Assembly (NCBI GenBank): GCA_002269645.1
Contig: NIVC01001308.1
Coordinates: forward strand, 98,501 to 162,500
Reading direction: 5' to 3'
From: Macrostomum lignano
Lineage: Eukaryota
DNA: 64,000 nucleotides
The translations under genes were made by a program, and so were the position numbers. The notes below the pieces were generated by a model. The model saw only the letters and a list, made by a program, of their open reading frames with translations, ran no database searches and was not told the DNA's origin. Each line of letters starts with the position of its first letter. The first letter of the stretch is position 1. This document shows positions 2 through 41,145 of this stretch, one piece after another.

Positions 2-3000
2 CAACATCAAACAGCCGTTATCGCCGAACAAAAAAGACGAAACGAACAAGCCTCAGCCAGATGTTACTACTGCGGACAAGAAGGACATTATCAGATTAAT
101 TGTCCTCATTGGTCAACAAGATACGACAAATCACGACAGATATTCAACAATCAGAAGCCGCAGAAACCATGGCAGCAATATCAAAATCGCCAACAACAAG
201 GCATAAGACGCTTCGGAAATGATAGACGCTTCGGAAATAATGACCGCTCCGGAAATAATGGCCGCTTCGGAAACGAAGGCCGCTTCAGAAATAATGGCTA
301 CAGACCGCGAAACGCCAGATACATGCCCAAGCAACCAACGCAAGCGATGCAACGATACGCGAATGCCATCACGTACACACCGGAAAATGAGCAGCAGGAA
401 CAGCAAGTGTTCACAATTGACGACTTGGAAATGGACTTCACAGTCCCGGAACTTGACATCAGCTTGATCGAAAAGAAGACGACGCACGAGGACAACACTG
501 ACAACACAGAAGAGGCGAATGAAACCGAAATGATCAAATTAAAAGAGACCACCGGAGACAGCAGAGAAAACAGGAAGAAAGTAAACCACAAGAAAAGGGA
601 GGAGACGGAGAGCGACACCGGCAACGAAGAAAAGATAAAGACTGGCAGAGAAAACAACTATGAATCGACAACAGTGGATGACGACAAAACAAGCACAAAA
701 GACAAAGAAATGAAGGAAGAAGAAGAATGTATAAGTTACGGCAACGATCACGACTGCGACGTGCATGATGACACGAACGGATACCGAGCCGAAGAAGGAA
801 TGCAGGAAGAACTGAGAGCGGAAAATCTAAGCTCCGACAGCGATCAAGGCTACGAAATCCAATGGAAAGATGAAGAAATGGAAAAAGAACAGATAAAAGA
901 AAAGCCGAGTTCCGACAGCGACGAATGCTACGAGATCCGATACAAACGAAACGGTGAAGCCTATATTCAAACGGTCGACTACAAGGCAGAAAAAAGATAC
1001 CAAACGCAATGGAGTGAAACAACGGAAACATCGGAAGAAGCTGCAGACGAAGATACTGAAATAACCAAAGAGCAAAGCAAATCAGAAGCCTTCCGCCTGA
1101 ATCAGCCAATGGAACAACCGAAAGAATACGATGCGGACATGGAGGATAACGAATGGCAATCGCGGCCAATGCCAGCAAAGACAACGGCAAGGTCCAAGAA
1201 GTGGAAAAACTGGCTATACTGGATCATCGTGATACTACTGATAGCAGTAGTCGCCAAAGCAACGGCAACGGAAAAGCCAATGATTTGTCCAACGGAGGCG
1301 CATATCCAACCGATGATCTACAAGATACCAACCGACATCAAATGCAGCTACTTCAAGACAAACCAGACGAAGCCAAAGAAGATTACACTCGATCTCTACA
1401 AGGCTAACATCAAGAAGCATCGACAACTCGGAATAGTGTGCTTTAGAGACAAGCACCTAGTGGAAAAAGTTTGGCGAGGACAATGGAACAGAATTCGATT
1501 TTGGCAACACGAACTACATGTGTCGCACGCTGAATGTCTACAATGGAACCAAACACTGTTCTCAAAGGATGGTCAGCTAGAACCGGATGAGAAAGTGGGG
1601 GAGGCACAACTTTACCGAACAAAGAACTCAGCAAACGGACGATATGTACACTTTTCGGAAACATGGACTAACTACATGACACGAAACAGTTACCTAATCA
1701 GGAATATTCCATTCTACCACAATCCTTTTGAAAAAATGGAGTCGCTACAACTGCAATTAAGCGACTGCCGATACAGCAAAGGATGGTGTCCAACGCCGAT
1801 ACTGCGGAATGAGGAACTATACAGCTTACCGTTGAGTCCAACATATCATCAAGACTATCGATGGCAAATTATACGCAGAGGCGACTCACGATATGAAGAA
1901 CCATCTAAGTCACGACAATACTTCCTCGCGTGGGAAGTTGGGCCGGAAATTGACTGCAAGCTGCAAAAGTATCACACAGTTGAAGGAGGTCTACTGTCAA
2001 ATACGTTTTTGGCAAAGTCAGGAGACTTGGCACTGACGTTTCAAAAGAAACCAGTCGAGCAAAAACTGAAATGCAAGGATACAGACAAGACACTATTCAT
2101 CTCGGAACAAGAGATACCAGTCTACGTAAAAGATGACGACAAACAAACCTTTCTGGCAATCATCAACGGAACGTATCAACAGCAGGAACAACAGAACAGA
2201 CGACGACGTGACATCGAACGTCCCAAACTGGTATCAAACCGACTACTGTCAGCAAAGATAACGGCTTTGGATCACAATCTACACAACCAGTTAAACCACT
2301 TGCATCGAACACTGGTCCAGCTAACTTGCAAAATGCACGCAATCAACTTAAATTATGCCAGACAAAACTACTATGTCAACCCTACGATGACTTTTCGTAA
2401 AATCACCGGAATGACGAACGTTTTGGCAGTTCCAATATACGAGCATCTGTTGATATACAAGTGCACGCCGATACAGCACTTCAACATCTTGCCGTCAAAC
2501 ACGTCAACAACCTGCTACGATAAGCCAAGGATTGAAGCGTTCTACGAAGGAAGACGAATTCAAGGATTCTTGGACACGGTACACAACATCATCGTTGGCA
2601 CCGCAATACCGAGACCTTGCACCACAGCAGCAAACTACTATCAACTGGACAATGCACTACACGTCATCAAAACAACTGGAACGACAGCAAACATCACAGA
2701 ACCGGAAGTAATCGTCGACGAAAACTACGACATGGAGGATTTGAAAATCCGATTCAACAGAACGAAGTATACGCCATTCGCCGATATCCAACTTGACGAG
2801 ATAACACCAGGATGGACGATCAACGACTTCTTGCAAGCGTTCATCACCCAACGCAAGATGATTCACCAGCTGTTCACAAGAAAGGACAAAGAAACCGGGA
2901 CAGGAAGATTTCCCGTCCTTGTTTCAATGGACAGCGCCATCAAATCATTTTGGACAAACAGCTTCTGGGAGCTGCTAAATGGAAGAGGCAGTCTCTATCA

Positions 3001-3982
3001 AGGATTCATCTTCTACGGTGCTTGCATTGTGTGGATTGTCACGGCAATCTTCGTCATTTCATCGATCGTACGGTGCCTCAGTCAAACTTGTCCAAGAGCT
3101 AAGAAGACAGTGAATGCCATAATGCAAAGAACGACAACGGAAGGCGACAACAGTTTAGAACTAACAGAAACTGCACATCGTGAGGTTCAAGGGCAACCGA
3201 CACTAGCAACGCGGCTATATCCATCGATTCCGACAACACCAACGGCACCAAGGATACAACCACCCAACTATCAAGCAGAACAGCACGAGCCAAAATGGCC
3301 GGAAAACTACGTCTGTACGCTACACGCCGAGATTGGCAAAGCAATGGCTCAGGTCATTGTCAACAACTTGCCATGTCGAGCACTGCTGGATTCAGGCAGC
3401 TCGATCACAGTCATCTCGCAACAATTATGCAACAAGCTACGACTCGCGGTACGACCAGCAGCAATCGCAGTTGCAGGAGCAGGAGGACATTCACTCAACA
3501 TACTAGGAAAAGCAGATATCGACTTGAAAATTGCTAATAAACAGCTGACGGTCCCGACGTACATCATCGACAGACTACCAAACCAAGACGTCATCGTTGG
3601 AATAGACACGTTCAAACAGCTTCGACTACCATTGACCTTCGACTTCAACAAGCAAACGTTTAGGATCGACACGGTGGAGCAACCACTGATCAATCAGATT
3701 CGAGTACTACCGAAAGTAACTCTGCAGCAAGATGTCATCATCCAGCCTGAAAGCGCATGCTGGGTCAGAGCGAAAGCGACCAGCGCGGCAGATGAAGCAA
3801 TGATATTTGATCCGCACAGGAGAGTCACGGCGAAACATCAAATCATGATGCCTACGGCACTAGTGCTGGTTGCAAAAGATAAACAGCTGCCAGTACAAAT
3901 CTTCAACCCGAACGCGGAAATGGTTCATCTACGACAAGGAATGTGCATCGGTCATCTCAACACTCAGCATCGGTTATGCTGA
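2..3982 (+). CDS. Gag(NC)-Env-protease polyprotein, 5'-truncated by window edge
   Basis: Frame of the 323..3982 ORF has no stop back to base 2 (translated by hand): CYYCGQEGHYQINC at 62-103; hydrophobic WLYWIIVILLIAVVAKATA 1211-1267; Cys-rich ectodomain with several N-x-S/T sequons; RRRR 2198-2209; TM GFIFYGACIVWIVTAIFVISSIV 3002-3070; LLDSGSSITVIS protease; dUTPase-like tail about 3700-3970. Confidence 0.9.
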   Translation, partial: QHQTAVIAEQKRRNEQASARCYYCGQEGHYQINCPHWSTRYDKSRQIFNNQKPQKPWQQYQNRQQQGIRRFGNDRRFGNNDRSGNNGRFGNEGRFRNNGYRPRNARYMPKQPTQAMQRYANAITYTPENEQQEQQVFTIDDLEMDFTVPELDISLIEKKTTHEDNTDNTEEANETEMIKLKETTGDSRENRKKVNHKKREETESDTGNEEKIKTGRENNYESTTVDDDKTSTKDKEMKEEEECISYGNDHDCDVHDDTNGYRAEEGMQEELRAENLSSDSDQGYEIQWKDEEMEKEQIKEKPSSDSDECYEIRYKRNGEAYIQTVDYKAEKRYQTQWSETTETSEEAADEDTEITKEQSKSEAFRLNQPMEQPKEYDADMEDNEWQSRPMPAKTTARSKKWKNWLYWIIVILLIAVVAKATATEKPMICPTEAHIQPMIYKIPTDIKCSYFKTNQTKPKKITLDLYKANIKKHRQLGIVCFRDKHLVEKVWRGQWNRIRFWQHELHVSHAECLQWNQTLFSKDGQLEPDEKVGEAQLYRTKNSANGRYVHFSETWTNYMTRNSYLIRNIPFYHNPFEKMESLQLQLSDCRYSKGWCPTPILRNEELYSLPLSPTYHQDYRWQIIRRGDSRYEEPSKSRQYFLAWEVGPEIDCKLQKYHTVEGGLLSNTFLAKSGDLALTFQKKPVEQKLKCKDTDKTLFISEQEIPVYVKDDDKQTFLAIINGTYQQQEQQNRRRRDIERPKLVSNRLLSAKITALDHNLHNQLNHLHRTLVQLTCKMHAINLNYARQNYYVNPTMTFRKITGMTNVLAVPIYEHLLIYKCTPIQHFNILPSNTSTTCYDKPRIEAFYEGRRIQGFLDTVHNIIVGTAIPRPCTTAANYYQLDNALHVIKTTGTTANITEPEVIVDENYDMEDLKIRFNRTKYTPFADIQLDEITPGWTINDFLQAFITQRKMIHQLFTRKDKETGTGRFPVLVSMDSAIKSFWTNSFWELLNGRGSLYQGFIFYGACIVWIVTAIFVISSIVRCLSQTCPRAKKTVNAIMQRTTTEGDNSLELTETAHREVQGQPTLATRLYPSIPTTPTAPRIQPPNYQAEQHEPKWPENYVCTLHAEIGKAMAQVIVNNLPCRALLDSGSSITVISQQLCNKLRLAVRPAAIAVAGAGGHSLNILGKADIDLKIANKQLTVPTYIIDRLPNQDVIVGIDTFKQLRLPLTFDFNKQTFRIDTVEQPLINQIRVLPKVTLQQDVIIQPESACWVRAKATSAADEAMIFDPHRRVTAKHQIMMPTALVLVAKDKQLPVQIFNPNAEMVHLRQGMCIGHLNTQHRLC

Positions 3983-6852
3983 TTGAGCACGCGACTCCAC
4001 GAATAACGGAGGAAGAGTTCCAAAAGAAAATCAACCTGGACGACAGCCCGATTACGGAACAACAAAAGAAGAAAGTTCGACAACTGTTGTGGAAGTACAA
4101 CGAAGCCTTCTGCCATCATGATTACGACATCGGACGAGCTAAAGACATTAAACAGGAAATCAAGCTTCTACCGCACACGGAACCAATTCAGTGCAAGCCG
4201 TACCCGATCGCCAAGCATCTGCAACAACACTTTGACGAAATCATCGATAAAATGCTAAAGCACGGCATCATCAGCAAAGCTATTTCGGCTTACTCCTCAC
4301 CGTGCCTACTGGTACAAAAGAAGGAGACTAACGAAAGACGACTCGTATGCGACTTCAGACTGTTGAACAAGTACATACCGACGGATCAGCAAAGCCTACC
4401 GAAGATCTCCGAACTATTAGCGAAGCTCAACACGGCAAAACTGTTCACGGTATTCGACCTACGTCATGGATTTTGGCAAATAGAAATCGACAAGGAATCG
4501 CGCCAGTACACAGCCTTCAAGACCTACAATGGACAAGTATACGAGTACAATCGATCGCCGATGGGACTTAGCAACAGCCCAGCAACGATGAGTCGACTCA
4601 CAGCATACATGCTTGCAGGATGCACGAACCTGCTGCACTATGTCGACGACATTTTGGCCTATGGAGAGGATTTCGAGCGACTCTATGAAGCTACGGAGAA
4701 GGCCCTGGCGCTCATTCAACGCCAAGGTCTTAAGCTGCAACCGACGAAATGCAAATTCTTCCGAGACAACGTGCGTTACCTAGGACACCAAGTGACAGCC
4801 AGAGGAATTTCACCGGACCCAGACAACGTGGAGAAGGTAAAAAGGTTTCCTACGCCAACCAGTATAACGAAGGTCCAATCATTCCTTGGACTTGCGCAAT
4901 ACTTCAGGAAGTTCTTACCTAACTTCGCAAAGACAGCAAAGCCACTGTACGACCTGCTCAAGTTCGACAAATGGAAGCAAGACAACTGGACACAAAGACA
5001 ACAGGAAAGTTTCGACGAAATTAAACGACAGCTGACATCAGACGCACTGCTACAGCATCCGGACTTCGACAAGCCCTTCATCATCGAGACAGACGCCTCA
5101 GGAACGGGACTCGGAGCAGTCCTACTACAGGAAACCGAGGACAAGAAGGAACGACCTATTGCTTACGTCAGTCGAGCACTCAAACCAAATGAGACAAAGT
5201 GGTCAGCTACGGAACGAGAGCTACTAGGAGTCTTGTTCGCCCTGCGACAGTTTCATTACTACATCTATGGCTCTCCAATACAGACGATAGTACGCACGGA
5301 TCATGCACCATTGACCTACGTCGTAACTACAAAAGGACAGACCAACAACCGACTCATCAGGATGACACTCAAGATCCAGGACTACAACTACAAACTCGTC
5401 TACAAACCAGGAATTACCAACAAAGCCGCGGACGCCCTGTCAAGAGCCTATGAAGTCAACGCCATTCATCCAATCCCTAACATCAAGGAGTTGGTGGATG
5501 AAACCGAGCGCGATAACTTCTACCAATCGGTTAAAGACGACGACAAGAACATCAAACTCAGTCCCATGGAACGAAAATTCCTACGCAAGCAACGACAACA
5601 CCTAACAATCAATAAGTCACGGCTCTACTGGATGAGCGACAATAAACCTAAGATCTACGTACCATATTCGTTTCGGCAAGCAATTCTCAACGAGCTGCAC
5701 GACAACCCACTCGCCGGACACCTGTCGGCCGCAAAGACCATCGCGAGAGTGGAACAATACTACTTTTGGCCAACTATGTATGGCGACATCAAGCAGTATT
5801 GCAACAACTGCCATTCATGTGCTGCATCAAAGACAGGACGACGACAGAAACCACAGCTACAGTCCATTCCGAAGTCGACTACAATGGACTGTCTAAGCAT
5901 CGACATCACCGGACCACTGCCACCGAGCTGTCTCCAGGGCATCGCCTACACCTACATCCTAACCGCCTTGGACATCTTCTCGAAGTTTGCTATTGCCATA
6001 CCGATACCGGACATCACAGCTCAGACAATAGCAATGAGTTTCTTCAATGAAATCATTTGCAAGTACGGCACGCCGAAGAACCTCACCTCGGACAACGGAT
6101 CGCAGTTTACGTCTCAACTATTTCAGCAAGTTGTGAAGATTCTCAACATTACGCAGATCTACACATCGACCTACAATCCGAAGGCAAACATGGTTGAACG
6201 GTTTCACCGCAACCTGCACGAGATGATTACACATTTCGCGCACCAACAGCCGGAAGACTGGATCATCTACCTGCAATCTGTAACAATGGCTTACAACAGC
6301 GCTATTCATCGATCAACAGACAATACGCCATTCTTCCTAATGTTTGGACGAGACTTCCAACCGCCGAATCTGCTCGCACAGCAATTGCTACCATCGCAGT
6401 ACGTGGAAGTACCGACTTCCATTCAGAAATTCGTCACGCAACTACACCTCGCATGGAAGATCGCCAAGCACAACATTGACAACCAGGTGGCTCTGACCAC
6501 CGGCAACGACGCGAGATGGACAACCCTGACGGCCGGCGACATCGTTTACCTGCACTACCCGCCACAGCAGACGCATAAACATGCACAGAAGTATAAAGGA
6601 CCCTATCGAGTGGTCCAACTAACGTCACCAACAACGGCACGCCTGGCTAATGTGCAAGATCCACATCAGCATCAATTTTACGTGCACATTCATCGACTAA
6701 AGAAGATCAACACTGACACCGCGACGTTTCTACCCACATTGGACAACGCCGATCGCACGCGTTCAACGAACCGCCACATCGCGACGAAGCACGAGGAGAC
6801 TCAAACGACAGATGTGAGCCAGCCACATGGCTACAACCTACGACCACGCTAG
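3943..6852 (+). CDS. pol: Pol: reverse transcriptase - RNase H - integrase (no chromodomain seen)
   Basis: YSSPCLLVQKK, RLVCDFRLLN, FDLRHGFWQI, PMGLSNSP, YVDD; RNase H IETDASGTGLGAVL and ERELLGV; integrase LHDNPLAGH...CHSC, IDITGP, SDNGSQF, VERFHRNL; GPY/F motif KYKGPYRV. Confidence 0.97.
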   Translation: MHRSSQHSASVMLIEHATPRITEEEFQKKINLDDSPITEQQKKKVRQLLWKYNEAFCHHDYDIGRAKDIKQEIKLLPHTEPIQCKPYPIAKHLQQHFDEIIDKMLKHGIISKAISAYSSPCLLVQKKETNERRLVCDFRLLNKYIPTDQQSLPKISELLAKLNTAKLFTVFDLRHGFWQIEIDKESRQYTAFKTYNGQVYEYNRSPMGLSNSPATMSRLTAYMLAGCTNLLHYVDDILAYGEDFERLYEATEKALALIQRQGLKLQPTKCKFFRDNVRYLGHQVTARGISPDPDNVEKVKRFPTPTSITKVQSFLGLAQYFRKFLPNFAKTAKPLYDLLKFDKWKQDNWTQRQQESFDEIKRQLTSDALLQHPDFDKPFIIETDASGTGLGAVLLQETEDKKERPIAYVSRALKPNETKWSATERELLGVLFALRQFHYYIYGSPIQTIVRTDHAPLTYVVTTKGQTNNRLIRMTLKIQDYNYKLVYKPGITNKAADALSRAYEVNAIHPIPNIKELVDETERDNFYQSVKDDDKNIKLSPMERKFLRKQRQHLTINKSRLYWMSDNKPKIYVPYSFRQAILNELHDNPLAGHLSAAKTIARVEQYYFWPTMYGDIKQYCNNCHSCAASKTGRRQKPQLQSIPKSTTMDCLSIDITGPLPPSCLQGIAYTYILTALDIFSKFAIAIPIPDITAQTIAMSFFNEIICKYGTPKNLTSDNGSQFTSQLFQQVVKILNITQIYTSTYNPKANMVERFHRNLHEMITHFAHQQPEDWIIYLQSVTMAYNSAIHRSTDNTPFFLMFGRDFQPPNLLAQQLLPSQYVEVPTSIQKFVTQLHLAWKIAKHNIDNQVALTTGNDARWTTLTAGDIVYLHYPPQQTHKHAQKYKGPYRVVQLTSPTTARLANVQDPHQHQFYVHIHRLKKINTDTATFLPTLDNADRTRSTNRHIATKHEETQTTDVSQPHGYNLRPR

Positions 6853-6972
6853 AGTTTCGAGAACAACCCCGTGTAGTGACCGGGATAAAGAATAGCACTA
6901 CAGCTTCGCAAGCTTGTCGTAAAAGGCGACTAATCCGAGCGACACAAAGACAGCGACAAATTGACAACAATT

Positions 6973-7407
6973 ATGGGCAACGCACTGTCGAAACAGGCGC
7001 CCCAACTTCAGCAGCTATATGACTGCCCGATATGTTTAGCTGATGACTTGGCTGTCAAGCCACCGACTATTTGCATCAATGGACATAAAATTTGCGGACA
7101 ATGTTTAAGTGATTCACACTATATTCAGCCCTGGCAGAATTGTCCCCTCTGTAGAGATAGTTTGCGACAATGCGCCTATTGTTATTCTTGGCGCACGTTT
7201 CAATATTGTAACCAGTAACATTTTATTTGCATGCACGGTTTGAAGCAAACCGCTAGTAGGGGCATTATAGGATGCCCCTTATGTAATAGTATGCCGCGAG
7301 ACTGCACGTTTCGAAAGTGGTGTCGTATCAAACCTGATGCCACTCGATGTCTACGCGATATTCGAGTTTTGACCGCAATATGTACTGAAAAGTTTTTAGA
7401 GTTTTGA
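6973..7407 (+). CDS. Accessory ORF3: MGNALSK N-terminus plus two tandem C3HC4-like RING fingers; in-frame TAA at 7216-7218 interrupts the second finger
   Basis: RING1 CPIC-x12-CINGHKICGQC-x12-CPLC; read-through gives CAYC-x8-CNQ*HFICMHG-x12-CPLC and continues to TGA at 7405-7407. Confidence 0.75.
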
Positions 7408-7520
7408 CCAAACCCTCGCTTCTCTAGACGCGCACAAAATCAATTGTTTATTTCCTATATTAACAGATCACCACAGAATTTTATTATTTCATTGTTAAAA
7501 CTCGGGACGAGTTTTTTCGT

Positions 7521-7535
7521 AAAAAAGGGAGATTT
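7521..7535 (+). other. Polypurine tract
   Basis: aaaaaagggag lies immediately upstream of LTR start TGTAG (7536). Confidence 0.75.
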
Positions 7536-8399
7536 TGTAGAGTGTTCTACCGCCCGTTAAAAAAGGTAAAAAGAAGATAATCGTATAATGCTACTATAAG
7601 TAAGTAAGTACACGCATGTACGCCTAAGTTTTGAATGAATCACGCTACCAGAAAAAGATGTTACCAAAATGATACGCAATAAGCCATTTCCCCTTTTAGC
7701 GCAACACGTGAATTGTCATGATACTATTTTGGATCAAAAAACTTGCCTATAAATACAAGCGATCTGAAGCGGTACCGGAGCCATTCTCCCCACGGAAGAG
7801 GAGCGCTCCGAAGAGGAAGCCTTAGGAGGACTTCCTGATATACCAAGTCAAACGAGACTCGGTCGAGTTGTTGCGGTAAGCCTTCCTTATTTGCGCCCGT
7901 TGTGTTAGAGACGTCTCGCTCAAGTCTCTTGAGACTTGAGTCTATTTGAGTCTGTTGAGACTCTTGAGTCTGTTTAGACTCCATTGGTTGCAGTCTCCAG
8001 AAGGACTGCCCCTGATAGATCTTAGAGGACTATCAGTGGTTTCCGGAGCTATACCTAGAGTGCATAGAGGCACTGCTAGAAGAAGGAGGCTTAATTCAAA
8101 CCGCTGTTCGGCGCAGGGTACCCATTGTTGCTACGAGGCCTCTGATTGGTCCTGACGGAAGATACCGGCCGGAAGAAATTATCGGAAGTACAAGAGGAAC
8201 CAGGACCAGAGCAACTGAAGAATCAAGGCGCCTGATCTACGAGATCTACTGACGAGTTCCTAGCGAGTACTACTCAAGAAATTCAAATCCGGATTAAAGG
8301 TAATTAAATACCTTCGTTTGACTTACTGGGTTGCCTAGCTGTTGAGCTAGAAGTGAGTGTTCTTTGATTACCAAAAGTCGTGTAATAAGGAACACATCA
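7536..8399 (+). repeat. 3' LTR (about 864 bp, TGTAG...CATCA)
   Basis: Termini match inverted copies at 12966-13797 and 11390 onward; TATAAA at 7748-7753. Confidence 0.88.
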
Positions 8400-9157
8400 C
8401 CACCTCCGGAATCTTTAGTCCTGTCCTTTGTGCGGCAGGCATCACTTTTATGTCCCACTCGACCGCACTTGCTGCACGTCTTGCTACGGTAGGGGCAGTT
8501 CTTTGCCCAGTGATCTTGTGCATTGCAGCGGAAGCATCCAGATTGATTGTTTCTGTTGTTCTTCTCTGACAAGCCGTCTGTCAGATTTTTACTGGCTCTC
8601 GAAGACTTCACCGCCTGGATTGCACCAGTTGACGAAATTGTCACCACACCTCTTTCCGCTGCTTCCATCGCAGTCGCAAGGGTAAGTGCTCCAGTTAGTG
8701 TCAGTGTGTCTTCTTGCAACAGACGCTGCTGTGTCAGGCGATTCCTTAGGCCGACAACGAACCTGTCTCTCAGTGCCTCGTCCAAGAATTCATTAAAACC
8801 ACACGTGGCAGCCAACTTCCGCAGACTTGCGATGAAATCGCTCACATTTTCTCCTTCATGTTGGGCTCTGCTGTGGAAGTTGAATCTCTCGACAACGATC
8901 TTAGGCATTGGGTTAAAATGCTCCCTCAGGGCCTTGACTTGATCGTCGAAGTTCACATCCTTGGGCTTCTTTGGTGACAGCAGGTTGCGGAGCAATTGAT
9001 AGCAGTCATTACCAATCACTGTAATCAGATTTGCTCGCTTATGTGCCTCCTCGGTCACTTTGTTTACGACGAGAAACTGCTCGAGTCGTTCTTCATAAGC
9101 TTCCCATTGCTCCGGTTTAGCCACGTCGAACTCTCCGATTTTTACACTCGTCGCCAT
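8400..9157 (-). mobile_element. gag: gag of a second, unrelated Gypsy element (two CCHC knuckles), cut off at 8400 by the env-bearing element
   Basis: MATSVKIGEFD...WEAYEERLEQF...LRDRFVVGL...CFRCNAQDHWAKNC...CSKCGRVGHKSDAC; the track ORF tail (DVFLITRLL...) is read-through into the LTR. Confidence 0.88.
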
Positions 9158-9300
9158 TGTTATGTCCTCTTCTTCTGCTTCTATACCGACTATTGCCTCC
9201 AGGCTACCATCTGACATCAAAGTCAAGTCGAAGAAGCATTATTTAAAATACGAGCTGTTCACAAGCTTTATTTGCCTCTAGCCGGCGCACGTCTTGTTTT
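9147..9300 (-). repeat. PBS (TGGCGACGAG) and adjoining 5' LTR end (...CATAACA) of the second Gypsy element; far LTR boundary not resolved
   Basis: Minus strand reads ACATAACA-A-TGGCGACGAG with the gag ATG overlapping the PBS; AATAAA on minus strand near 9270. Confidence 0.6.
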
Positions 9301-11389: not shown

Positions 11390-11960
11390 TGATGTGTTCC
11401 TTATTACCAGACCTTCTCTGTAATCAAGGAACAATCACTTCTAGAACTTTAGCTAGGCAACCCAGTATTCAACTGAAGGTAGTTATTACCTTGAGTCCGG
11501 TTGAGTAGTTCTCTTCCTGTGAGTTGATCTCGCAATAGGAATCGGTTAGATCAGTTGATCTGGCGCCTTACTTCTTGTCTCGGGTCCGAGTCTTCTTTGT
11601 ATTCCTTGCCGGCCGGTATCTGTAGTGTAGACCAATAGGAAGCTTCCAATTAATAATAGGATCCTTGCGCCAACAGCGGTATCAAATAAGCCTACTCCTT
11701 CTAGCAGTGACTTGATGCACTCTAGGTATAGCTCCGGTAATCACTGATAGTCCTCTAAGATCTATCAGGGCAGTCCTTCTGGAGATTGCAACCAATGGAG
11801 TCTAAATAGACTCAAGAGTCTCAACAGACTCAAACTAAACTCAAATGAGACGTCTCAACAACAGGCGCAAATGAGTAAGGCTTCAGGAAGTCCTGCTGAG
11901 GCTTCCTCTTCGGAGCTCTTCTCCTTCCGGAGGATTTCTTGGCACTTGTATTTATAGGTA
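11390..11960 (-). repeat. LTR of the same family in inverted orientation (may extend to about 12393)
   Basis: Reverse complement aligns by eye with about 7750-8399, including the ...GGAACACATCA end; possible other end TGTAAAAA at 12393 with imperfect TSD ATTG/ATTT. Confidence 0.8.
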
Positions 11961-12965: not shown

Positions 12966-13797
12966 TGATGTGTTCCTTACTACCAAGACTTTTTAGTAGT
13001 CAAGGAACAATCACTTCTAACTTCTTTGCTAGGCAACCCAGTTATCAGATAAAGGTACTTCTTACCTTGACTTCGATTGGAGATATCTCTTCAGGAGTTC
13101 TCTTGTAGATCTCGCTTGGATCTCTCTTTGATCTCGTAGATCAGGCGCCTTGGTTCTCCTGTTGCCCTGGTCCTGGTTCTTCTTGCACTTCTGATGAAGT
13201 GACTTCCGGCCGGTGTCTGCAGTCAGGACCAATCAGAGGCCTCGCATCAAATAATGGGTACCCTGCGCCGAATAGCGGTTTCTCCTTAGCCTTCTCCTTC
13301 TAGTAGTGCCTCTATGCACTCTAGGTAATGCTCCGGTAATCTCTAATAGATCCTCTAAGATCCTCTACTCAACAACAACTGGCGCAAATGAGAAAGGCTT
13401 ACCGCAACAGCTCGACCGAGTCTCGATAGACTTGGTGATCAGGAAGTCCCTCTAAGGACTTCCTCTTCGGAGCGCTCCTCTTCCGTGGGGAGAATGACTC
13501 CGGTACCGCTTTGGGCCGCTTGTATTTATAGACGATTTTGCAGGCCAAAAATAGTAACATGACTCATGGGTTGCGCTATAATTGGTAACATGACTCTTTG
13601 CGGCTATTATTAGAAAGTGATTCATTCCGTTGCAATAAATAGTAACATGATTCATTCTGCTGATATAAATTGTAACATGATTCATAACATGATTCATCGT
13701 TAAAGTTTAGGTCCGCATGCGTGCACTTACTTACTTACAGTAGCATCCATCCTAGGATTATCAATTACTTCTTTTGCGGGAGGTAGAACACTCTACA
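12966..13797 (-). repeat. Solo LTR of the same family with 4-bp TSD AAAG
   Basis: Minus strand TGTAGAGTGTTCTACC...GGAACACATCA; AAAG at 12962-12965 and 13798-13801. Confidence 0.88.
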
Positions 13798-14795: not shown

Positions 14796-15409
14796 TCAAA
14801 CGTCTTCATCGTCTTCATACGATAAAACAAGTGCGGTACCAGCCTCATTAAGATAGTAATAAAGACCCCGTGTGTTCATATTGGGATACTCTTTGTAGAC
14901 TCCGTTCGGGGACATGAATGTGCAATAGCCGTACCACCACCCGGAGGACTCTGCGCAGTTGCCTCCGCTCCAGTTGTCATTGTCGGAGTCCGGGGTGCTG
15001 AACTGCTTGTTGTTTCGGCGAGTAGTCTGTATGAGTCAGCTGTCCGACACTCGACCTGCTCGCGTCCAGAGGTCCCATCGAGCACCTGAACTTGTCGCTC
15101 GCTGGGCCAACAGAGAACGGAGCATTTTCAGCCCAGTACCAGGTGCCGTTCCAGTCGCTGAACTCCCAGCGGACTCTCCACACTCCAGTGGCGGTGAGCT
15201 GGTGGAGCTGCTCCAGTCCCAGTCCAGTAGTTGAGACTCTCGCCCTGACCGAATTCGCTCGCGTAGTCCGTCCAGCTGCGGTTGAAGCTGACGGAGCCGT
15301 CGACTCTGTGCTGGAAGGTCGTCCAGCACTTCACCGGGTTTCTCATCTGCAATGGGAGATGCGGTGCTGCAGTCACCATTACAGCGCAGATGAAGAGCAG
15401 AGAATGCAT
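14796..15409 (-). pseudogene. Intronless fibrinogen-related domain (FReD) gene, disrupted
   Basis: WTTFQHRVDGSVSFNRSWTDYASEFG, LGLEQLHQLT, WEFSDWNG, FSTPDSDNDNWSGGNCAESSGWWYGYC spread over different frames (breaks near 15225 and 15040). Confidence 0.75.
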
Positions 15410-15599
15410 TGTGCCGGAGACAGCAGTTGTTTGAGATTCCGCAGTTTTGCTCCACGCGTTTGCATCCCGAGAGGCCCCGCTTTGATAACTTGAGTTTGGA
15501 GGTGGGTGACTGAGTTTTGTTTATGCGCGACTGCTTGGCAACAATGAGCGCACAAGCGGATGAGAGAAGAGAATTGAGACATCAATTTCCCGGTTCCTA

Positions 15600-32586: not shown

Positions 32587-34437
32587 TTATTGTCCACCAG
32601 GATATGGTGCACCACCTTGCTGTGCAACCGGATATGGTCCACCACCTGGTTGTGCACCAGGATATGGTGCACCACCTGGCTGTGCACCAGGATATGGTGC
32701 ACCACCTGACTGTGCACCAGGATATGGGGCAGAACCAGGCTGCACGCCAGGGTAAGAAGCATCGCCAAAAAAGCCACCCGAAATTCCGGCACCACCAGCG
32801 GCTGACGGAGCGTCGTTGCGAACTCGAGGCGGACCAGCTCGAATTCCGCGACGCCTCATCCACTCGCACACCTGATTCGGAAGCTCCGCCAGTACCTCCT
32901 TCGCCAAGGCATACCTGCTGCGATCAATGTTGCCACCCTGAATGAAACGACGCAAAGGAACGAATTGGACGACATCTCTTTCGGCGATCATCGACCCGCA
33001 GCGAAGTCGTTTGTCGTCTGAGTCCAGATCCTTCATCGCAGAGAAGTCCTCGTTTCCGACACCAACTATGATTATGGACATCGGTAGAGATGACGCCTTG
33101 ATGATTGCCTGCTTCGTCTTCTCGAAGTCCGTGATGATTCCGTCAGTGATGATCAGCAGTACAAAGTACTGAGCTCCTGTCTGGTGAGCCGCAGCCATTG
33201 ACGCTACGTGGTTGATCACGGGCGAAAAGTTTGTCGGACCGTACAGTCGCACCGCTCTGATGCAAGACCGATAGGCCGCGAGAAGACCTAGCATTCCTGC
33301 GCAGTACGGGTTTTCGGGCTGCAGAGTCAGCGAGAACGCATCCTGAACTCCCGAGAACATTGGAGGCAACAGAGCTCCGAAGCCCAGTCCGGGAAACTGC
33401 TTGTCTGAGTCGTAGTCCTGCACAATCTCTCCTACCGAAATTATCGCCAGCTCGTACTGGTTCGGTCGGCCGTCGGCGCTCACGTGGTGCAGCGAGCGAG
33501 GGTCTCTGGGGTCTCCGTTGCTGCCCGTGAAGTCGATTGCAACCGTGAAGTGCAGCTCAGTGCCGCCCTGAATGTAGTCGACGAACGAGTCGATGGTCTC
33601 GATTCCGATCTGGCTGAACACGATGGTTCCAGCCGACTTTTTCTTCTTGCTGATGAGGGTTCGTTGGGCGGAGCGGCTCCGAGCCACCTCCTGCTCCAAG
33701 CTCTCCAGGCTGCTGTAAAAGCTTCCTATCAGATCATGAGAGCCGTCTCCATCATAATCATAGCAATCAAATCGTAGGATTAAACGCTTATTACCACGAC
33801 AGATTCGAGCGACTGGTACAGAAAACATTGCCCATCGTGGGTTCAAGTTATTCTTAATAACCTCCGTTCGATGCACAAGAGACCAATTGCGAACGTGGTT
33901 TAACTCGTCTTCGCTTGTTACATCTTCAAGTGGTTGATAGATTTCAAGAAATGGATCTGATTTGCCAAGAAAGTCTTTTTTATCAAGTTTGTGCCCTTCA
34001 ATTTGAAAGTTAACAACTTGCTTGCACTCTTGAACTTCTACACAGGTTACAGTAATGATGGACGTCTTCGAACTTTTTGTCCTGCAAAGTTTAGTTTCGA
34101 ATCGACGTCGGCTTACAAGCTCGCCGATCGAAGTCTCCAACTCGCCGAGAAAGTCGTGCTCAGACAGTCGAGCACTCGGACTGTCCAAGTCGTAAATTTG
34201 AAACTTCACCAGCTGACGCTCCTCGAACATGAAGTCGACAATGAACCGATGGCTGAATTCGGGATCAAGCGTGTTGTTCAGTCTCTCAGTTCTGCCGATT
34301 TCTTGAAAGTTGGAAGTTCCCGGCTGGCGCAGGAACAGGACGCACTGAGGATCTGACTTGGAGGTGACGTCACGGTCAGGCAGATTTCTGCAGGACACGC
34401 TGATCTCAACGCGACTGGTTAGGCTTGGGCTGGACAT
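32587..34437 (-). CDS. CPNE: Copine A (C2A-C2B-vWA, PYPG-repeat tail), intronless, about 616 aa
   Basis: SKSDPQCV, KKDFLGKSDPFLEI, VAIDFTGSNG, LLIITDGIITD, SIIIVGVG, RDVVQFVP; first ATG at 34437. Confidence 0.95.
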   Translation of the reverse strand: MSSPSLTSRVEISVSCRNLPDRDVTSKSDPQCVLFLRQPGTSNFQEIGRTERLNNTLDPEFSHRFIVDFMFEERQLVKFQIYDLDSPSARLSEHDFLGELETSIGELVSRRRFETKLCRTKSSKTSIITVTCVEVQECKQVVNFQIEGHKLDKKDFLGKSDPFLEIYQPLEDVTSEDELNHVRNWSLVHRTEVIKNNLNPRWAMFSVPVARICRGNKRLILRFDCYDYDGDGSHDLIGSFYSSLESLEQEVARSRSAQRTLISKKKKSAGTIVFSQIGIETIDSFVDYIQGGTELHFTVAIDFTGSNGDPRDPRSLHHVSADGRPNQYELAIISVGEIVQDYDSDKQFPGLGFGALLPPMFSGVQDAFSLTLQPENPYCAGMLGLLAAYRSCIRAVRLYGPTNFSPVINHVASMAAAHQTGAQYFVLLIITDGIITDFEKTKQAIIKASSLPMSIIIVGVGNEDFSAMKDLDSDDKRLRCGSMIAERDVVQFVPLRRFIQGGNIDRSRYALAKEVLAELPNQVCEWMRRRGIRAGPPRVRNDAPSAAGGAGISGGFFGDASYPGVQPGSAPYPGAQSGGAPYPGAQPGGAPYPGAQPGGGPYPVAQQGGAPYPGGQ

Positions 34438-35863
34438 CTGTAATTTTTTGCACAAATTTTCTATCGCTTAAGTGTTGAAAAATTGTAGGAACATCTCAAC
34501 TTAAGCCATACTGACTGACAATTAGGCTAGTTCTGTCGGCTGTAAACTTAAGTATTGCGTTGGATATAGCATTGAGACACAGTCGGGGCTTATATTATAT
34601 ATTAAAATATTGAACCTTAAAATACAGAAGAAACAAACCTTTATTTTGCAGCCAATTTACCGCCAAAAAATTAAGCTAAATATAGAACCATGGCGGACGC
34701 ACCAAGTTTAATCTAGTAAAAGCAAGGTAGAAATAAAAATTGCTTGCTTCATTTACGCAACTATGTAGGTCATTGCTTCACTTTCGTCGCTTTGCGAAAA
34801 GAGTTAGTCATCTTTTCAGCAAAGCTTGCTACAGGCAAGAGAGAGACACTTAAGCGCCTGTTCAATAACCAAACACACGTAGCACTGAAGCAAACTCGTA
34901 ACAATATAATGCTTTCGTATACGTGATGCTTGCATACTACGAATTTCTAGCGACTGCCAAAAGCACAAAATATCTTTACTGTCTTGTTGTGTGGGTTAGT
35001 ATGCCAGAACCTTGTGCAAACATTCAGTGTAGCTATTTCAACTCGATTTGTAAGGCCACATTCGAATACACGCTGAGCATTCAAGTGTATGCTTATCGAG
35101 AAAATCTAAAAATAGCCTGCTTCTCAAACTTAATAAGATATGGTAGCTACATTTAGATTCAATGTACGCTCGTGCAGTATATTCATCGCCATATACTAAA
35201 TTTAGTATACAATTAATATATTCTGAAACTCTGAATAGCTTCCAGAAGGTCGTCTAGCGTAATCACTTATTCATAGTTTCAGTTAAAATAAATTGACTAA
35301 AAAGCAATGTTTTTCGCCAGGAAAACCTCTGGGAGCTGTACGTATATTATTCACAACTAGCGTAAACTGGCAAAACTTCACGGATCGCAGGACAGTAACA
35401 AAAAACAAATAATTATAAAGGAATAAAGACGGATTGCTTTTTTAACGCTGAATAAACACAACTGGAACCTCCATCGGACATTGTATGGATGTGTATGGAT
35501 CCTAAAAATATGTGTATGGATAGGCTTGTACATATCCTTTATAGCTTACTTTTCGTTAATGTAAGCAATGGTGGTATGAGTAGAACCGAGAGCTTCGAAC
35601 CGGATTGAAACATAGAGAGAAATATATGGCCGGGAAATTGCGTTGTAGGCAAAGTTCTGCGTGTAACTACTGATTGCTTCTCTTAGAGAGAAATCACCTC
35701 ATTGGTTACTATACAGTGAAGAATCTATTAAACATGTGTATTAATATGATACAAAAGCTTTGATTTAGTAAATACCTGGAGGATTAAGTATTGTATACGT
35801 CATTCCAAACTATTGTAGTAGTGTCAGTGAATGGAGCACACACGGCACAGAGGGAGGCGTGGG

Positions 35864-37742: not shown

Positions 37743-39644
37743 TCAAGGAGCACTGGGAGGCACACCCAGATACGGAGGTACTGAAGCCTGGGCGCCGCCA
37801 GAAGCGGATGGATAGGCCGGCGGTGGTGCAGTCGGAGCCGCAGCTCCAGGAGCATAGACTGGACCTGCAGGATAGCCAGGCTGAGGGGCGCCAGGATATC
37901 CTGGACCCGATTGAGGCACACCGGGATACGGAGCACCAGGATATTGAGCTCCTCCTGGTTGAGTGCCAGGGTACGGAGCGCTTCCAGGAATTCCGGCACC
38001 ACCAGCAACTAACGGAGCGTCGTTGCGAACTCGAGGCGGACCAGCTCGAATTCCGCGACGCCTCATCCACTCGCACACCTGATTCGGAAGCTCCGCCAGT
38101 ACCTCCTTCGCCAAGGCATACCTGCTGCGATCAATGCTGCCACCCTGAATGAAACGACGCAAAGGAACGAATTGGACGACATCTCTTTCGGCGATCATCG
38201 ACCCGCAACGAAGTCGTTTGTCGTCGGAGTCGAGCTCCTCCATCGCAGAGAAGTCCTCGTCTCCGACACCAACTATGATTATGGACATCGGTAGAGATGA
38301 CGCCTTGATGATTGCCTGCTTCGTCTTCTCGAAGTCCGTGATGATTCCGTCAGTGATGATCAGCAGTACAAAGTACTGAGCTCCTGTCTGGTGAGCCGCA
38401 GCCATTGACGCTACGTGGTTGATCACGGGCGAAAAGTTTGTCGGGCCGTACAGTCGCACCGCTCTGATGCAAGACCGATAGGCCGCGAGAAGACCTGGCA
38501 TTCCTGCGCAGTACGGGTTTTCGGACTGCAGAGTCAGCGAGAACGCATCCTGAACTCCCGAGAACATTGGAGGCAACAGAGCTCCGAAGCCCAGTCCGGG
38601 AAACTGCTTGTCTGAGTCGTAGTCCTGCACAATCTCTCCTACCGAAATTATCGCCAGCTCGTACTGGTTCGGTCGGCCGTCGGCGCTCACGTGGTGCAGC
38701 GAGCGAGGGTCTCTGGGGTCTCCATTGCTACCCGTGAAGTCGATTGCAACCGTGAAGTGCAGCTCAGTGCCGCCCTGAATGTAGTCGACGAACGAGTCGA
38801 TGGTCTCGATTCCGATCTGGCTGAACACGATGGTTCCAGCCGACTTTTTCTTCTTGCTGATGAGGGTTCGTTGGGCGGAGCGGCTCCGGGCCACCTCCTG
38901 CTCCAAGCTCTCCAGACTGCTGTAAAAGCTGCCGATAAAATCGTGCGACCCGTCGCTGTCGTAGTCGTGGCAGTCGAAGCGAAGTAGCAGCTGCCTGTTT
39001 CCGCGGCACAAACGGTTCAGTGGAACCAAAAATTTGGCCCATCGCGGGTTCAAATTGTTCTTGATTACTTCGGTACGATGTACAAGTGTCCAATGTCGGA
39101 CTTTATTGACTTCATTTTCACTCGTAATTTCCTCCATTGGCTGATAAATTTCAAGGTAAGGATCGGATTTTCCAAGAAAGTCTTTTTTGTCAAGCTTTTT
39201 TCCTTCGGCAATGAAACTGACTATTTGTTTGCACTCTTGAAGCTCGAAACACGTGATTATAATTGTGGACTTCTTGTGTCCAGTTTTGGACAAAGTAGTT
39301 TCGAATCGACGTCGGCTTACAAGCTCGCCGATCGAAGTCTCTAACTCGCCGAGAAAGTCGTGTTCAGACAGTCGAGCACTCGGACTGTCCAAGTCGTAAA
39401 TTTGAAACTTCACCAGCTGACGCTCCTCGAACATGAAGTCGACAATGAACCGATGGCTGAATTCGGGATCAAGCGTGTTGTTCAGCTTTTCAGTTCTGCC
39501 GATTTCTTGAAAATTAGAAGTTCCCGGCTGGCGCAGGAACAGGACGCACTGGGGATCTGACTTGGAGGTGACGTCGCGGTCAGGCAGATTTCTGCAGGAC
39601 ACGCTGATCTCAACGCGACTGGTGAGGCTTGGGCCGGACATCAT
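37743..39644 (-). CDS. CPNE: Copine B, intronless, about 633 aa, tail with PTAP, PPAY and terminal PSAP
   Basis: Same copine motifs; first ATG at 39644. Confidence 0.95.
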   Translation of the reverse strand: MMSGPSLTSRVEISVSCRNLPDRDVTSKSDPQCVLFLRQPGTSNFQEIGRTEKLNNTLDPEFSHRFIVDFMFEERQLVKFQIYDLDSPSARLSEHDFLGELETSIGELVSRRRFETTLSKTGHKKSTIIITCFELQECKQIVSFIAEGKKLDKKDFLGKSDPYLEIYQPMEEITSENEVNKVRHWTLVHRTEVIKNNLNPRWAKFLVPLNRLCRGNRQLLLRFDCHDYDSDGSHDFIGSFYSSLESLEQEVARSRSAQRTLISKKKKSAGTIVFSQIGIETIDSFVDYIQGGTELHFTVAIDFTGSNGDPRDPRSLHHVSADGRPNQYELAIISVGEIVQDYDSDKQFPGLGFGALLPPMFSGVQDAFSLTLQSENPYCAGMPGLLAAYRSCIRAVRLYGPTNFSPVINHVASMAAAHQTGAQYFVLLIITDGIITDFEKTKQAIIKASSLPMSIIIVGVGDEDFSAMEELDSDDKRLRCGSMIAERDVVQFVPLRRFIQGGSIDRSRYALAKEVLAELPNQVCEWMRRRGIRAGPPRVRNDAPLVAGGAGIPGSAPYPGTQPGGAQYPGAPYPGVPQSGPGYPGAPQPGYPAGPVYAPGAAAPTAPPPAYPSASGGAQASVPPYLGVPPSAP

Positions 39645-41145
39645 GCACAAGTTTGTACCGATTAAACTCGATTCGGTTTAATACAGATTACCGCCCGTGT
39701 AATCAGTGTAGCTTTACTTTACTTGCATAGAAAAATGTCACCCTCATAATGCTACAATCGATGAGCAAAGTAAACATCCTGCCCTAAAATAGGTTTGCTG
39801 TTATCGTACTTTACTCGTTCAGGATCTGAAGAATGAGATTATATGCCTATGCAAGAGGCCATTGGCAATGAACTAATCTTAGTAATTACGACCTAGTTCT
39901 AGTTTAGGCATGCAAACTTGGCTGAAGTTACTATTTTAGAAAGATTAACTGGAACGTTGTCAAGAAGCAGTAAATGATTTATTAATTAATAATTCTATCG
40001 TACTTTTGCACAATTCCATAAGGAACAATTTAAATATTTGGAAAATCAGCACTTTTTGAATAAGCGAGATTTTTTTAGGCCTTGATCAAGTAATATAACG
40101 AAGCAAAAATATAATGAATATACAATTTCAGCATTTAGCTTGACGGCAATGTCGGAATAGCAGACGTACCGGTAGGTATTCAAAACCAGTAAATATTAAT
40201 TTCGTGGATACATGATTTAAAAACATACAATTGCGGCGAAATTGGATTGGCAAATAGTAGCAGTATAAATAGAGTGGGAAAAGTATTTTAATTAAAGTAC
40301 AAAACAGTTCACGTCTTATCCGTCGGATGCATTAATCTTTTCTTGTGGAAAGCAAAAGCAGAATAACTATTTAGTAACAAGAATTATATTTTCATAACTA
40401 CTGACGAGCAGCACTTTAAATTACGATTTCCAATAGCATTCTATGGAAAAATTAATAATTTCGATAATATTTTTATGTAAACTCGTAGTCACTGCTTGCT
40501 ACGTAAGGAAAAATGATCTTTCTAACCCGTCAGACAGAAAATTAGGCTTTTTTATTGCCTATACTCAATACAAATTAAAGCCAGCTTAGATCATTAACAG
40601 CTAGCAGAAACTCTGCCGATTACAATAGAAAACCAATTTGAATCTTTTTTAGGCATCTCAACTTTATGACAATTTGGTTAGAATGCATTCGAGTTGCTGA
40701 TACTGGTATAGAATTTCTATTCTTTTCAGTGTGGCCATATGTGACGACGTCGTTAGCATCTTAAATTTTTAGTTTCTATGTGAGTTTTTATTACTTAAAA
40801 TTATTATAGTTGATTAATTTGCAGGTTCCCCAGCCATTAATTTAATGTAATTTATTTAGAAAAAATGTACTTAAGTTTTATTTATTTAAGTCCAAGTTAT
40901 TACTACTTTTTTGATAGATATCTTAGGTTTAAATGAATCGGATTTCCCCGCCAATTTAAATTGTTGCCTCGCGCTCGTTTTGTACTCTCCTCAACTCGGC
41001 ATTTTGTCTCGTACCATGCGTGTCAACACTACTAATAATTGAACTAGCTAACCAATAAATAAATACTAATAAATAATTAACAAATAATTAATTAATCGCT
41101 GACTACATCTCGAACTCGCTACGTCACACATAGATAAGTGAAACG

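Follow-up and report, generated by a model that had tools for sequence, protein, structure and literature searches.

An expandable row of small RING-finger genes lies behind pol in a group of Ty3/gypsy elements of the flatworm Macrostomum lignano. The window analysed here (the whole stretch of 64,000 nt from contig NIVC01001308.1) contains one member of this family at positions 6973 to 7407, which is a defective, shortened allele of a genuine accessory gene that is conserved in the family. This single copy is of little importance in itself; the larger find is the row. With a probability of roughly 0.55, we propose that these genes code for element-encoded E3 ligases that would act in trans against host control.

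The carrier of the window gene is a young, env-carrying Ty3/gypsy element of GAG-ENV-POL order, and the RING gene starts 120 nt past the pol stop. The element shows the hallmarks of errantiviruses, namely protease, reverse transcriptase, RNase H and integrase in that order, LTRs, a primer-binding site, a polypurine tract and a target-site duplication. Its 5' LTR, located upstream of the window, is identical to the 3' LTR at 864/864 positions. The features of the element and of its RING gene are as follows.

2 to 3982, + strand: 3' part of ORF1, with the Gag zinc knuckle, an env-type glycoprotein and the protease in a single frame; the ORF starts upstream of the window
1208 to 3082, + strand: env-type (class III, mononegavirus-like) glycoprotein, flanked by two hydrophobic segments
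3218 to 3271, + strand: late-domain-like motifs YPxI, PTAP and PPxY, with the env membrane segment on one side and the protease on the other
3883 to 6852, + strand: pol, with reverse transcriptase, RNase H and integrase; frame open
6868 to 6932, + strand: non-coding block conserved in all three lineages (A, B, C); two small hairpins are predicted in it
6900 to 6905, + strand: candidate splice acceptor of gene 1, inferred, with AG at 6902-6903
6973 to 7407, + strand: accessory RING gene 1, truncated and broken copy
6973 to 6993, + strand: N-myristoylation-type start (G2, S6, K7), found in lineage A only
7024 to 7155, + strand: RING1 (C3HC4, SINA-like spacing) with a conserved Arg after the last Cys; intact here
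7171 to 7284, + strand: finger 2, C3HC4-type, disrupted by the 7216-7218 stop and by a lesion at 7237
7288 to 7445, + strand: linker remnant and beginning of the helical domain, ended by the stop at 7405-7407 and a deletion of ~1.05 kb
7521 to 7532, + strand: polypurine tract, read from the sequence
7536 to 8399, + strand: 3' LTR of 864 bp, TG...CA, with TATAAATA at 7748-7755 and a single donor-like site at 7875/7876
8400 to 8403, + strand: 4-bp target-site duplication

The sequence-only reading had placed the RING gene in the slot normally occupied by env. This does not hold: env is present in ORF1, between gag and the protease, and the RING gene is therefore no env replacement. The assignment of a class III-type env to this position is based on hydrophobic segments at 1208-1273 and 2999-3082, a furin-like RRRR at 2198 and a match to Pfam Monjiviricetes_fusion (PF24664) that stays below the cut-off (E 2.8e-5). 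In the window copy, ORF1 and pol overlap in two frames (3883-3982), and in several other copies a single frame of ~2,500 aa runs through the integrase; the frame change may be specific to the window copy. The RING-bearing element is itself nested within another gypsy element, on the minus strand. The interrupted element is a different one, and its gag and pol flank the insertion (window 8294-9238 and L061:4377-7736, both on the minus strand).

Much of what had been read from the window gene was borne out. The ATG at 6973 opens a frame starting with MGNALSK, and codons 18-60 form a SINA-like C3HC4 finger (Pfam Sina_RING and zf-RING_2, both at a sub-cut-off E of 0.003, the protein being scanned with an X at the stop position). 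The TAA at 7216-7218 and the pattern of a second finger with similar spacing, at codons 67-104, are also there. Besides the TAA, this finger has a lesion at 7237, common to the window copy and L008, that abolishes one of its metal-ligand positions. The next stop in the frame is at 7405-7407. The resulting 144-codon frame is a partial gene: its relatives code for 222 aa, and similarity continues beyond the 7405 stop to about 7422-7445. The ~1.05 kb absent in the window's subfamily corresponds to the remainder of gene 1 and a second paralogue. A DNA search of the genome gave 40 scored matches, with 30 loci listed, one of which is the window. In the 29 other copies, the first open frames are of 144 aa (six copies), 124 aa (15) or 113 aa (two), frameshifted (two) or long (four). 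Most of the closest relatives of the window copy are likewise truncated or broken.

Full-length members of the family are ~200-222 residues long and are composed of RING1, a second C3HC4 finger and a helical domain. Relatives with ~99% identical integrase harbour a 222-aa gene 1 followed by a 210-aa second paralogue ahead of the LTR, and the homology between these two types extends over their whole length (hhalign 99.8%, 195 columns). The genome contains at least 150 matches to the family, among the matches listed. Tandem rows occur in three element lineages, with 1 to 7 matches each, several of them broken; the 7-match row is found at a duplicated block that is broken in part. The two lineages other than that of the window, with integrases ~70% identical, have two to three or more genes. 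At every locus with an intact upstream context the row lies behind the integrase, and several loci present orphan fragments beside LTR-like pieces or without an element marker in the stretch examined. Dense nests of full and partial element copies with several cassette variants were observed on G000:C2121, C87 and C1130, resembling a transposon graveyard or a small-RNA cluster.

In more distant families, with integrases 34-44% identical, no RING was found within ~4 kb behind pol at any of 10 loci, eight of which have env in view. Three of the four distant-family loci that we inspected carry unrelated ORFs of 254-318 aa there, with no convincing Pfam match. The slot behind pol is thus a variable cargo position. 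By eye, the L151 and L152 proteins resemble each other. Separately, an ORF of 105-132 aa close to the 3' end is common to distant families (56% over 45 aa, E 2e-16) and has no Pfam match.

L151:2953-3717, L152:2796-3578 and L159:2342-3298, - strand: unrelated ORFs behind pol in sister env-carrying families
L074:7079-7477 (+ strand), L071:2282-2680 (- strand), L151:1390-1731 (- strand) and L152:1422-1739 (- strand): shared 105-132-aa ORF

A profile search of 1.84 billion proteins returned 132 matches at E up to 0.001. Four of these (P0001 to P0004) span nearly the whole profile, P0005 covers both fingers and P0045 the C-terminal half; most of the others match RING1 alone. P0001 is a UniRef entry labelled Macrostomum lignano that contains a near-identical downstream paralogue, and P0002 to P0004 are full-length homologues from other samples (E 1e-30 to 1e-36). 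The single-protein homologue search scored none of its 93 candidates, and among 2061 candidates profile A5 recovered only two of its own members. With the whole protein, the Atlas pointed to generic viral RING clusters at ~0.9 with low recognition, which is a lead only, and it gave no usable match for the helical part.

Pairwise Nei-Gojobori estimates, calculated without a recombination model, indicate that the cassette family is under purifying selection, with dN/dS mostly at 0.1-0.3 and near-saturated dS. Of 12 pairs of first-position genes, two were saturated and the other 10 have dN/dS values of 0.11-0.38. For downstream genes, dN/dS is 0.17-0.31 in eight of 10 pairs; the remaining two are a near-identical pair (0.42, wide interval) and a saturated one. 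Each of the three parts of the protein, RING1, finger 2 and helical domain, is under constraint. All 16 zinc-ligand positions, including the eight of RING1, are invariant in 10/10 orthologues, as is Arg61. The same Arg does not vary in the 15 aligned downstream paralogues either, and Pro58 is nearly invariant.

The element has been mobile recently, with or without a working gene. Of the 18 copies tested, full and truncated, 17 have LTR pairs that are 99.3-100% identical, and the 5' LTR of the remaining one was not found; in a copy of the diverged L078 type, whose gene is dead, they are 99.7% identical. In cis the element can do without the RING gene, as is to be expected if the product acts in trans, since copies devoid of a working gene can then still move. 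The spread of ~21 copies with the early stop of the L078 type, among the matches listed, and of 15 with another premature stop would likewise be compatible with a gene that is of little use at present.

We propose that gene 1 would be the first member of an accessory cassette held between pol and the 3' LTR by this Ty3/gypsy clade. RING1 would recruit host E2-ubiquitin, finger 2 would be a structural element or a degenerate duplicate, and the divergent helical domain would select the substrate. The products, which would be made from spliced subgenomic mRNAs with a single donor in the 5' LTR and one acceptor ahead of each gene, would act in trans, leading to the removal or disabling of host proteins involved in restriction or silencing. 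Gene 1 of lineage A would in addition have gained a myristoylation signal directing it to membranes.

The earlier suggestion of a captured E3 ligase stands at the level of motif and fold. RING1 has the C3HC4 ligand set, and Sina_RING matches 13 of 14 family members, with a best E of 2.4e-7. In the AlphaFold2 model of the full-length protein (pLDDT 88.3), residues ~13-65 superimpose on RING E3 ligases, namely RNF146 (Z 4.4, rmsd 2.2, 48 aligned residues) and HHARI (Z 4.2, rmsd 1.9, 48 aligned). RING1 is the only part of this model that has fold relatives, all with Foldseek E-values above 0.001 and Z scores under 5. Many RING folds are not ligases; a ligase is expected to have a basic residue straight after the last Cys together with hydrophobic E2-contact residues. 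RING1 has both, in the form of Arg61 and Pro58. We take Arg61 to be the E2-ubiquitin ‘linchpin’ and, from RING biochemistry, the Arg-bearing RING1 to be the E2-activating finger. Finger 2 has eight invariant ligands in a C3HC4 pattern, a first loop of eight residues and no Arg after its last Cys; its profile matches are weak (TRIM32, E 0.009; BRE1, E 0.37). The C-terminal domain is all-helical (pLDDT 81.5 when modelled alone). Its best fold match is the N-domain of ATP synthase delta (Z 6.2, rmsd 3.0, 83 aligned), within the range common to helical proteins. Thus it has no confident fold match, which does not by itself make the fold novel, and comparison with viral structures gave none under E 0.5.

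RING1 resembles that of host SINA (hhalign 96%, E 1.5e-9), with the similarity confined to 44 RING columns, and that of a host RING-B-box cluster (hhalign 94%, E 2e-7), with the likeness limited to RING1. Like the SINA/SIAH and TRIM ligases, the family has a C3HC4 RING in which the spacing is C-x3-H and the last Cys is followed by an Arg. In contrast with them, neither the SINA zinc fingers and substrate-binding domain nor a B-box or a coiled coil was detected in the family; their place is taken by another C3HC4 finger and the helical domain. Membership of the SINA/SIAH family was rejected: the SINA zinc fingers and TRAF-like domain were not detected and the C-terminus is all-helical. The host genome also has TRIM-like clusters of RING, B-box-like and helical genes in both orientations (G000:C210, C1491 and C2920; L171-L173), possibly an expanded restriction-factor family.

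The C-x3-H spacing that RING1 shares with host SINA and the RING-B-box cluster is also what a decoy would display, i.e. a protein that binds host RING ligases (SINA or TRIM-like) or sequesters their E2s, thereby blocking them, and itself ligates no ubiquitin. Truncated forms with RING1 alone, of 124-144 aa, occur frequently, which suits such a role. Nevertheless, selection constrains the helical domain no less than the fingers, and this speaks for a distinct binding partner; the Arg that follows RING1 has been retained as well. We therefore regard a decoy as unlikely.

If the cassette proteins are ligases, they have to be expressed from behind pol, and candidate splice sites suggest how. Each of three LTR types has one donor-like site, 109-127 nt after the TATA box and with no ATG between. 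Ahead of gene 1, ACAG|CT at 6900-6905 is invariant in 8/8 aligned haplotypes, and splicing from the LTR donor to 6904 would make the Met-Gly codons the first start. A YAG is found 0-2 nt ahead of the ATG in 23 of 30 upstream sequences of downstream genes by eye and in 20 of 30 by script; the count by eye corrects three cases in which the script chose a second Met. One row was transferred out of the first-position group. The same holds for 0/19 first-position sequences and 61/852 background ATGs, the upstream sequences being related and not independent. The adjacent YAG is mostly missing at third and later genes. In the computed gene model of P0001, this very LTR donor is joined to the ATG of a downstream gene. 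Together, the donor and the acceptor-like sites suggest spliced subgenomic mRNAs as in complex retroviruses. Spliced-leader trans-splicing is also possible in this host, whose spliced leader ends in ATG (PMC8629364). Several acceptors are 2 nt off the gene ATG, and cis-splicing would suit them better.

The 6868-6932 block around the gene 1 acceptor is strongly conserved, which would also be expected if the product regulated the element's RNA through it, in the manner of Rev or CERV, by controlling export or splicing. There is a precedent in the nematode gypsy element Cer1, which encodes CERV for the export of its genomic RNA; the described domains of CERV (H, M and G) include no RING (PMC10309623). 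Structure searches gave no RNA-binding fold match, a regulator in cis has no need of several diverged paralogues, and the block persists in copies whose gene is dead. Folding of the conserved spacer is not significant (z-scores -0.83 to +0.06). We consider this role improbable.

The start of gene 1 had led to an analogy with the arenavirus Z protein, as a matrix-like membrane adaptor. Four lineage A haplotypes have a strong G2-N3-A4-x-S6-K/R7 start with three different Ser6 codons, and G2, N3, A4, S6 and K/R7 are kept in 5/5 sequences of the lineage. Gly2 is missing in two of the 29 close copies. The Gly codon never varies in lineage A, so the evidence for a functional start is modest, and we give about even odds to myristoylation being functional there, as a late gain. 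A lack of purifying selection on the Cys and His residues and on Gly2 in decayed copies had been named as evidence against the reading; such selection is seen for the zinc ligands and only in part for Gly2, which occurs in four of 10 orthologues, all of one sub-lineage (lineage A), and in none of 15 downstream paralogues.

A separate membrane anchor is conceivable, since the first Met of the Gag frame is not followed by Gly. However, scanning for P[T/S]AP, PPxY and YPxL/I revealed no late-domain motif in any of 25 family proteins (the 10 orthologues and 15 paralogues). In 11/11 elements other than that of the window, the stretch separating the env membrane segment from the protease contains one or more of these motifs (L062, L080, L117, L119, L130, L151, L152, L154, L157, L159 and L160), RING-less families included, whose integrases are as little as 34% identical. 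This distribution suggests that the env tail of the Gag-Env-PR polyprotein recruits ESCRT, and it makes a Z-like matrix role for the RING protein unlikely. Moreover, the sister env-carrying families manage without a RING gene behind pol, and the copies with dead genes are young. Arenavirus Z has 90-99 residues, one RING, and conserved myristoylation and late domains (PMC3509680). The likeness is limited to the RING fold and, in one sub-lineage, the myristoylation-type start; the family proteins are ~200-222 residues long, have two fingers and a helical domain, mostly lack Gly2 and have no late domains. The analogy is poorly supported, and a budding adaptor has little chance of being the right description.

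That the gene is a neutral fragment of a host gene, carried along and decaying, describes the present state of the window copy, which is truncated and broken like most of its closest relatives. For the family it is largely refuted, and very improbable, by the low dN/dS at near-saturated dS, by the full-length homologues P0002 to P0004 in other samples and by the lack of an intron-bearing host parent gene among the loci examined. Finally, programmed read-through of the TAA at 7216, yielding one- and two-finger products, is ruled out: nothing beyond the open frame behind the TAA speaks for it, the stop is private to the window copy (0/29 other copies), the codon is sense in the L078 type and in the main contigs of all four public runs (a second, diverged contig spans the site in two of these), and finger 2 bears the further lesion described above. 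The TAA thus represents either copy-specific decay or an assembly error. Recombination with the decayed subfamily of L078 type was also considered as the source of the stop and rejected, as that type has a sense codon there.

Returning to element-encoded ligases, extra ORFs and ubiquitin-related cargo are already known in LTR elements, flatworm ones included. GAG-ENV-POL errantiviruses with an HSV/gB-type env have been described in Platyhelminthes, and the window element probably belongs to the Mlig_errantivirus_2 family, a match made by listed features and not by sequence (PMC13524379). They share the GAG-ENV-POL order, an LTR of 864, an identical 12-nt primer-binding site and many young copies, with a listed total length of 10,591 vs 10,619 for the window element. 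The words ‘RING’, ‘accessory’, ‘zinc’ and ‘ubiquitin’ do not occur in the main text of that paper, and the parts examined show no cassette behind pol. In the planarian giant gypsy element Burro/GYPSM1, env is likewise in frame between gag and pol, and its extra domains, which have links to ubiquitination and apoptosis (MATH/TRAF, BIR and an AIR1 ‘RING Zn-finger’ annotation), were proposed to meddle with host systems; they lie mostly inside a ~5,000-aa polyprotein or an upstream ORF (PMC6431247). Unlike these, the cassette consists of separate small genes in a tandem row of variable length behind pol, each coding for a RING, a finger and a helical domain. Bdelloid LTR retrotransposons have captured ORF3s after pol, typically expressed from spliced messages; the text contains neither ‘RING’, ‘zinc’ nor ‘ubiquitin’, and the parts examined report no tandem rows of paralogues (PMC5408684). 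Our literature search, which may not have covered subscription journals, Repbase and M. lignano repeat papers and saw its sources in part, found no description of the cassette.

Further parallels are found in complex retroviruses, with Vif, Vpr, Vpu and Nef in lentiviruses and the tandem orf-a and orf-b of walleye dermal sarcoma virus. Their accessory genes are small and 3'-located, are expressed by multi-acceptor splicing from one 5' donor and act in ubiquitin-based counter-defence, and Nef is myristoylated. Retroviral accessory proteins are adaptors that borrow host ligases, whereas here the RING is apparently encoded by the element itself, in an invertebrate Ty3/gypsy lineage. A full invertebrate counterpart, with an LTR donor spliced to a series of acceptors, an accordion-like row of RING ligases whose helical domains would each be aimed at a different host factor of restriction or silencing, one ligase membrane-targeted by a newly gained myristoylation signal, and cheaters devoid of the cassette, is a tentative and on balance doubtful extension. 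To our knowledge, few transposon-encoded counter-defence proteins are known in animals. Through its substrates, a conserved, duplicating RING set in a recently active element would point to host factors that restrict LTR elements in the stem and germ cells of flatworms. Such a set would also be a case of an accessory cassette of the retroviral type that originated separately in Ty3/gypsy elements, and its helical domain is one to which no fold could be matched with confidence.

Other features of the window lie outside the element. Diverged pieces of a related LTR, inverted and 83-97% identical, are found at 11672-11834 and 13130-13563 (minus strand). Exons at 14796-15581 (minus strand) presumably code for a fibrinogen-like domain. 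Lastly, three paralogous ORFs of 626-716 aa with 30-nt repeats of the Pro/Gly/Tyr type are present on the minus strand at 32587-34467, 37743-39677 and 41762-43912.
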